Position numbers and translations under genes: made by a program
Assembly (NCBI RefSeq): GCF_016026235.1
Contig: NZ_CP065613.1
DNA length: 64,000 nt
DNA from: Escherichia coli
GTDB taxonomy: Bacteria > Pseudomonadota > Gammaproteobacteria > Enterobacterales > Enterobacteriaceae
Strand: one strand, 5' to 3'
In this document: positions 11,600 to 12,525 of the stretch, in pieces
Numbering within the stretch: the first letter of the stretch is position 1
How the letters are laid out: the number at the start of each line of letters is the position of its first letter
The notes under the pieces: model-generated
The model's database searches: none
Seen by the model: the letters and a program-made list of their open reading frames with translations, nothing else
What the model was told of the DNA's origin: nothing

Positions 11600-12525
11600 A
11601 TGATGAAAATAGAGCCTTCAATTTTGCCTTCTCTTGCCTGGTTTGCGCTGATTGTTCGTGCCGGCAGTTTTTCCAGAGCCGCTTCTGAAATGGGTATTAC
11701 GCGGGCCGCATTGTCCCAGAATTTAAAATCTCTTGAGGAACGTCTTAACACCAAGCTGATATACCGTACGACCCGCAATATGTCGCTTACTGAGGAAGGA
11801 CTGCGTCTGTATGAAGTGCTGGTGTCGGCTTTGGGGCAAATTGATGATGCTTTGAAAGATGTTGGTGATACCCAACTTGAACCTACAGGCCTGTTGAGAA
11901 TAAATTCCTCCCGTGTTGCAGCACGGATGCTTGTTGAGCCTCATATTGGCGAGTTTCTTACTCGTTACCCCAAAACAAAGATAGAACTCATTATGGATGA
12001 CGGTTTATCTAACATTATTGCGGACGGCTGTGATGTGGGCATACGTCTTGAGCAAGGACTGGATGAGCATATGACTGCCGTTCCTGTTTCTCCGCTTATT
12101 AAACTGGTTACTGTGGCATCGCCAGATTATTTAAAAGAACACGGTATTCCTGAAACGCCTCAGGAACTGAGTAACCATAATTGCCTTCGGTTGCGGCATA
12201 AAAGTAGCGGTGCACTCTCTGCATGGGAGTTTTCTAATGTTGCGGGCGGGAATGAAGAGTTCGAAATAGAGGTTTCAGGTAAGTATATTTCTAATGATGA
12301 CGAAAGCATGATACGAATGGCGCTGAATGGAACGGGTATCATTCAACATCTGGATTTTGCAATCGCTGAACATATCAATGCGGCAAGTTACAGCCGATTC
12401 TTGAGGATTGGGCTGTTTCATTTCCTGGGTTTTATATTTATGTTTCATCACGGGTGAGAATGCCCTCTAAAGTTCGTGCTTTTATTGATTTTATGGTGGA
12501 GAAAAGAGTAAAACTCGAAAATTGA
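11600..12525 (+). pseudogene. LysR-family transcriptional regulator with 1-bp frameshift near C-terminus
   Basis: HTH after MMKIEPSIL start (ATG 11600); frame changes around 12379-12383: current frame ends at 12457, adjacent frame encodes canonical LysR C-terminus ...GKLQPILEDW...MPSKVRAFIDFMVEKRVKLEN ending at 12525. Confidence 0.7.

Follow-up and report, generated by a model that had tools for sequence, protein, structure and literature searches.

The stretch of DNA analysed here (64,000 nucleotides, hereafter the window) is part of the Escherichia coli chromosome and covers the region ecp - ykgMO - ykgR ... fdeC - rcl - ykgEFG - bet - yah. [quoted passage not shown] Divergent to it, on the minus strand, lies the gene for an intact alpha/beta-hydrolase of 306 amino acids (10523-11443), assigned by Pfam, and downstream of the hydrolase gene on the same strand lies that for an intact Old-Yellow-Enzyme (OYE) NADH:flavin oxidoreductase of 380 amino acids (9137-10279; Pfam Oxidored_FMN, E = 2e-76). 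The hydrolase and LysR genes are separated by a divergent intergenic region (11444-11599), which holds a conserved element that is a candidate LTTR site.

The initial annotation of this DNA had claimed that the LysR gene carries a 1-bp frameshift near 12379-12383 which removes the canonical LysR C-terminus. We were able to confirm the frameshift by alignment with orthologues, and the loss of the C-terminus by translation, Pfam coverage and orthologue alignment; the coordinates given for the two frames (ATG at 11600 and end at 12457; C-terminal tail from approximately 12382 to 12525) were all correct by translation. From the ATG at 11600 the translation terminates ...AIAEHINAASYSRFLRIGLFHFLGFIFMFHHG*, and past ...DFAIAEHINA the plus-strand frame reads on as ASYSRFLRIGLFHFLGFIFMFHHG. 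Residues 1-261 of the product are native and are followed by 24 out-of-frame, unrelated residues. In the adjacent frame, GKLQPILEDWAVSFPGFYIYVSSRVRMPSKVRAFIDFMVEKRVKLEN* is read from 12382 up to a stop codon at 12523-12525. This out-of-frame remnant (12382-12525, plus strand) is the native C-terminus of 47 amino acids, beginning GKLQPILEDW and ending KLEN, and it is without a usable start codon of its own. We considered separate translation of this remnant and rejected it, as the first start would be the GTG of ...SSRVRM..., from which a product of only ~22 amino acids is possible.

At the lesion site itself (12379-12383, plus strand) the window reads GCGGC where two intact E. coli orthologues read GCGGGC, as seen in both the alignments and the listing of indels. 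One G is absent from a GGG run; this is the sole difference from the intact alleles at the junction, and the DNA 3' of the lesion is identical between the window and the intact alleles. The intact orthologue encodes a single product of 308 amino acids reading ...AEHINAGKLQPILEDW..., and in other strains the gene is annotated as a 927-nt, 308-amino-acid "LysR family transcriptional regulator" (e.g. WP_077901644.1). Chance is not at issue here, the lesion being a difference in sequence from relatives and not a statistical pattern.

Occurrence of the deletion in genomes and assemblies

Using a 76-nt probe across the site, we matched the segment in 2,104 complete RefSeq E. coli genomes; no match reached 100%, so that the deletion is absent from all of these genomes, and in a search with the full gene every top listed match spanned 1202 nt for a query of 1201 nt. 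The initial annotation had raised two ways in which the frameshift might prove illusory, namely orthologues that end naturally in the window frame and independent data showing an extra base. A natural end in that frame was found neither in the 2,104 complete genomes nor among the homologues listed, which extended down to 53% identity, and independent assemblies show GG.

The exact 285-amino-acid product was found by exact-sequence look-up on at least 24 contigs (30 blocks) of a public assembly collection, and GenBank entry STL99477.1 is identical to it. Carriers of the truncated product include ERR3331069, SRR5330898, SRR13627086 and GCA_902503985.1, which differ from the window by 0 to 5 SNPs. 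In the contig DNA of ERR3331069 and SRR5330898, the two contigs aligned, we saw the same GG allele as in the window. The SRR13627086 contig, which is common to 6 samples, matches window positions 1600-22457 (20,858 nt) at 100% identity. In comparison to the window, GCA_902503985.1 has 3 SNPs and an 11-bp deletion and SRR5330898 has 5 SNPs and a 9-bp deletion, with the truncated product unchanged in both. The independence of the Logan runs was judged by their differing accessions and SNP differences, the evidence consisting of assembled contigs. As the carriers differ by SNPs and indels yet encode the same product, we regard them as distinct members of one clonal lineage which inherited the deletion.

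The presence of the GG allele or the exact truncated protein on these contigs, under differing run and assembly accessions, argues against the view that the gene is intact in the organism and that the source assembly contains a homopolymer miscall. It is true that the lesion is a one-base loss in a short G run, and that the longest contig with the product (4,564,698 nt) may, we infer, be a long-read assembly; but some of the carriers differ from the window by SNPs or indels and are hence not the same assembly, and while a second 1-bp loss does occur in the window, in the A8 run of ipbA, its well-annotated coding sequences are otherwise without frameshifts. We consider a miscall to be extremely improbable, and we are close to certain that the single-G deletion is genuine and clonally inherited and is not a sequencing error.

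Over the full length of the two 24-kb stretches searched, complete RefSeq genomes reached at best 98.8% identity for window positions 1-24000 and 98.1% for positions 40000-64000. As no complete RefSeq genome was closer than ~98-99% over these stretches, the lineage is under-sampled, and the deletion provides a clean marker for it. The LysR gene is accessory in E. coli: it was carried by 2,215 of 5,426 complete genomes (~41%), the rest (~59%) being without the gene.

We also compared the remainder of the window to strain NCTC10444. In the 31.6 kb which are collinear with this strain, the other indels are intergenic, except for one in a small ykgL-like ORF. Outside of these 31.6 kb, the other indels are intergenic or net-zero within coding sequences, the exceptions being ipbA and the 3' end of betA. 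The window assembly is not error-ridden, and few frameshifts are present elsewhere in it. The small ykgL-like ORF (7535-7725) is frameshifted by a 1-bp deletion at ~7610, and strain AHM8C212RI likewise has a ykgL with a frameshift flag. An 11-bp intergenic insertion is found at 8397-8407, between ykgR and ykgM. The gene ipbA (hbiF/fimX, tyrosine invertase; 35870-36432, minus strand) is frameshifted in comparison to NCTC10444, having lost one A from an A8 run near 36091; a homopolymer miscall may account for this deletion. In betA (37496-39181, minus strand) there is a one-T difference in a T6/T7 run at ~37519, 23 nt before the stop codon, so that nothing but the very end of the protein is altered. 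Elsewhere the gene is 95% identical to that of NCTC10444, and the difference is probably allelic variation and not inactivation. A 4.6-kb segment between betT and pdeL (43469-48116) is absent from NCTC10444; in this part of the window lies ehaA (43937-47986, named from other strains), encoding an autotransporter of 1,349 amino acids with an ESPR signal, an autochaperone and a beta-domain.

Further variation was found within the lineage and in the window itself. ERR3331069 and GCA_902503985.1 are without 11 bp (ATTCCACCATT) at 14696-14706, near the 3' end of an aldo/keto reductase gene (14667-15518), giving a product of 277 instead of 283 amino acids, and SRR5330898 is without 9 bp in ecpB (window 4892-4900). 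Another aldo/keto reductase gene (21578-22447, plus strand) contains a nonsense change without any indel, CAG to TAG at 22061-22063 (22061 C to T), at codon 162 of 289. The same TAG is present in the SRR13627086 contig, where the gene is called as two pieces of 161 and 112 amino acids. Less than 10 kb from the LysR lesion there is thus a second knockout which the lineage shares. The gene hyxR, encoding a LuxR-type regulator, is split into remnants at 35303-35811 and ~33681-33971 (minus strand) by a 1,331-bp IS3-family element at 33972-35302 with an rve-type transposase of 301 amino acids. The flanking alignments overlap by 5 bp, which is consistent with a target-site duplication; from its size and this duplication we take the insertion to resemble IS2. 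Taken together, the lesions in the aldo/keto reductase, ipbA and hyxR hint at a raised pseudogene load in the lineage.

Partner operon and intergenic element

Orthologues of the LysR protein were compared in E. albertii (89% identity), Shewanella algae (59%), Chromobacterium vaccinii (57-58%) and Vibrio parahaemolyticus (56-57%). In all four of these taxa we observed a hydrolase orthologue divergent to the LysR orthologue, with an identity to the window hydrolase of 98% in E. albertii, 68% in Shewanella, 62% in Chromobacterium and 77% in Vibrio. The genes further downstream vary: the OYE gene also follows the hydrolase gene in E. albertii and Shewanella, and an NmrA-type reductase gene lies downstream of it in Shewanella and Vibrio, while neither of the two is found downstream of the hydrolase gene in Chromobacterium. 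The second LysR gene of the window (LysR2, 12684/12726-13619) and the two aldo/keto reductase genes at 13651-15518 do not travel with the regulator.

Because the hydrolase is the only constant divergent neighbour across the four taxa, the hydrolase-OYE operon, with the hydrolase as its first gene and OYE as its second, suggests itself as the target of the regulator, and we consider it fairly likely that this operon is the target and not the LysR2 and aldo/keto reductase neighbours. The initial annotation had described the gene as the regulator of a redox cluster; divergent synteny agrees with this description for hydrolase and OYE, whereas LysR2 and the aldo/keto reductases, which are not conserved beside the regulator, should be left out of it. 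Being drawn from synteny only, the regulon assignment is given here as likely.

The conserved element in the intergenic region, ACAGTGTTAAGTTAAGGTTTACAAT, is located at ~11577-11601, directly upstream of the LysR start. Across five taxa from four genera (Escherichia, Shewanella, Chromobacterium and Vibrio) it takes the form ACAG(T/C)GTTAAG-N6-TT(T/A)ACAAT. It includes a 15-mer of the T-N11-A type at 11583-11597, which in E. coli is the imperfect dyad TTAAGTTAAGGTTTA and in Vibrio the perfect palindrome TTAAGAAATTCTTAA. Of the dyad pairs of TTAAG-N5-NTTTA within the element, 4 of 7 are matched in E. coli, and only in Vibrio is the palindrome perfect. It is plausible, going by this conservation, that the element is a candidate LTTR operator of this regulator family. 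It should be noted that the element abuts the LysR start codon and is ~135-155 nt from the hydrolase start, which is not where textbook geometry (-65) would place a site for the hydrolase promoter. A simple inverted-repeat search of the intergenic region returned only a trivial ATTTAA palindrome, and the cross-genus comparison was the more informative of the two approaches. A sigma-70 reading of the same DNA as the regulator's own promoter (ATCACA-16-TACAAT, 11574-11601) probably does not apply in E. coli, since the -10 hexamer would overlap the LysR start codon.

In the taxa examined, the LTTR family was always divergent to one alpha/beta-hydrolase, with a common upstream element. As a by-product, this yields a hypothesis that can be tested on the regulon of an uncharacterised LTTR family which extends from Escherichia to Vibrio, Shewanella and Chromobacterium, and the lineage described here offers a natural knockout for doing so. 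In the literature searched, we found no functional study of this regulator or its operon.

The segment replaced by the frameshift

The intact allele carries both LTTR domains end to end. The Pfam domain HTH_1 (PF00126) was found at residues 11-67 of both alleles with a score of 68 bits against a cutoff of 26.6. LysR_substrate (PF03466), the effector-binding domain, which when complete has ~200 residues, covers residues 94-301 of the intact protein (profile positions 3-206 of 209), and residues 94-260 of the window product (profile positions 3-165 of 209), where the domain is incomplete. The intact allele aligned over residues 12-302 with CrgA of Neisseria meningitidis (PDB 3hhg, E = 1.5e-37), and the top Foldseek matches of its model were full-length CrgA and AphB (E ~1e-21, probability 1.00); the LTTRs CrgA (3hhg) and AphB of Vibrio (3szp, 3t1b) are its nearest solved relatives. 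It also resembles LTTRs in its length of ~308 amino acids and in the position of its gene, which is divergent from a conserved partner operon. Judging by these matches, we regard the intact protein as a bona fide LTTR and the window copy as a truncated derivative of a member of the family. No named equivalog fits the intact protein: the named E. coli LTTR equivalogs considered were YafC, TtdR, AaeR, GcvA and DsdC, and all NCBIfam matches were below their curated cutoffs (bits/cutoff: YafC 190/470, the best of these; TtdR 141/398; AaeR 123/425; GcvA 130/288).

The window product retains the winged-helix DNA-binding domain and the linker helix, along with ~80% of the effector-binding domain. The ~20% which is lost comprises three predicted beta-strands and the terminal helix; in the AlphaFold model of the intact protein (mean pLDDT 78) the strands past the break are at residues 265-267, 273-275 and 279-283 and the helix is at 290-307. 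We aligned 27 orthologues, which are 52-89% identical to the E. coli protein, and found 12 invariant columns in residues 262-308 (L264, L268, W271, F275, G277, Y281, R285, P289, R293, D297, F298 and R303), with six further near-invariant columns in the same replaced segment. Where the protein was complete, each of the 120 listed homologues, the most distant having 53% identity, had a query coverage of at least 96%, indicating that the C-terminal tail is not optional. The 24 residues which replace it, SYSRFLRIGLFHFLGFIFMFHHG, are strongly hydrophobic and aggregation-prone.

In the LTTR fold, regulatory subdomain I is completed by the part of the chain which comes back after crossing the hinge a second time, and the C-terminal region of LTTRs contributes to oligomerisation. 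Because these C-terminal elements complete the effector fold, a protein which is cut here and carries a hydrophobic tail is most likely misfolded or non-oligomeric. On this basis the window allele is most likely a loss-of-function pseudogene, and we think it quite probable that the deletion abolishes the normal function of the regulator. The missing base is the only sign of decay in the LysR gene, and it may be that the lesion arose recently or that some constraint still acts on the remnant.

A different outcome would be a truncated protein which is functional or neomorphic, still dimerising and binding its operator, and acting as an effector-blind repressor or as a weak constitutive activator, which could be adaptive. 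Such a protein might still bind DNA through its intact HTH and linker helix, as residues 1-261 are native and HTH_1 scores the same as in the intact allele. However, the segment which has been lost includes four secondary-structure elements of the effector domain together with the 12 invariant positions, it is the segment which in LTTRs generally completes subdomain I and aids oligomerisation, and the residues in its place tend towards aggregation. The history of the allele can be read in either direction: it is fixed across a lineage which has since gained SNPs, it has no second lesion and its target genes are still intact, as would suit a product that is in use, but the gene is absent from most complete genomes, and the knockout of a nearby reductase in the same lineage fits relaxed selection. 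We consider a functional or neomorphic protein unlikely. The more specific proposal that an effector-blind regulator rewires hydrolase-OYE and that this, together with the aldo/keto reductase knockout, reflects selection on an electrophile/carbonyl-detoxification module is more doubtful again, and we hold it to be very unlikely.

Loss of function would also be avoided if full-length protein were made by programmed -1 ribosomal frameshifting, or if slippage in the G tract were reversible and switched the gene ON and OFF. We give these two possibilities next to no weight and have rejected both. For frameshifting, the junction AAT GCG GCA AGT holds no slippery site, and all orthologues are single-frame proteins of 300-340 amino acids. 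A heptamer which does fit the X XXY YYZ pattern in frame 0, G GGT TTT at 12427-12433, is the only one to do so; it is also present in intact alleles, and a shift there would not restore the invariant L264, L268, W271 and F275, whose place would be taken by 16 junk residues. For phase variation, the lesion does sit in a homopolymer, but known contingency tracts are much longer than 2-3 G, the same OFF allele is carried by every member of the lineage that we examined, and with the GG allele in none of the 2,104 complete genomes that have the segment no ON/OFF polymorphism was seen in the lineage or elsewhere.

Origin of the deletion and comparison with known systems

Loss of function thus remains the reading which we prefer, and the events leading to it can be sketched as follows. 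The deletion of a single base (GGG to GG), which would most simply have arisen by replication slippage, is fixed in one E. coli lineage that is clonal and under-sampled. The resulting frameshift after residue 261 of an accessory, uncharacterised LysR-type regulator exchanges its last three beta-strands and C-terminal helix for unrelated residues, and the product is most likely misfolded or unable to form an active oligomer. Effector-responsive control of the divergent hydrolase-OYE operon would be expected to be lost along with autoregulation. We hold this account as a whole, that is a lineage-fixed single-base deletion giving what is most likely a loss-of-function pseudogene with the hydrolase-OYE operon as its partner, with considerable confidence.

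LTTRs are for the most part activators of the operon divergent to them and repressors of their own genes. For this reason the loss of the regulator would more likely leave the operon with uninducible basal expression than with the constitutive expression that the initial annotation had raised as a possibility. If the protein behaves as a typical activator, we would by analogy most expect hydrolase-OYE to be expressed at a basal level and not to be inducible.

Beyond annotation, the lesion in itself matters little. Although it is a frameshifted remnant, STL99477.1 is annotated as a plain CDS under the name "putative LysR-like transcriptional regulator", which is that of an ordinary regulator and does not mark it as a pseudogene.

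The lesion resembles phase-variable contingency loci in that a change in homopolymer length shifts the reading frame, but differs from them in that the tract here changes only from 3 to 2 bases, whereas known tracts are long. Single-base indels in short homopolymers are a part of ordinary gene decay in genomes of the E. coli/Shigella type, and in bacteria no form of gene decay is more common than a lesion such as this one. The window allele shares with the pseudogenes of such genomes the loss of a single base from a GGG run, the restriction to one clonal lineage, the accessory nature of the gene and the presence of inactivated neighbours. It represents ordinary lineage-specific gene decay with no special mechanism, and no feature sets the LysR allele of the window apart from the general case of E. 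coli/Shigella-type pseudogenes.
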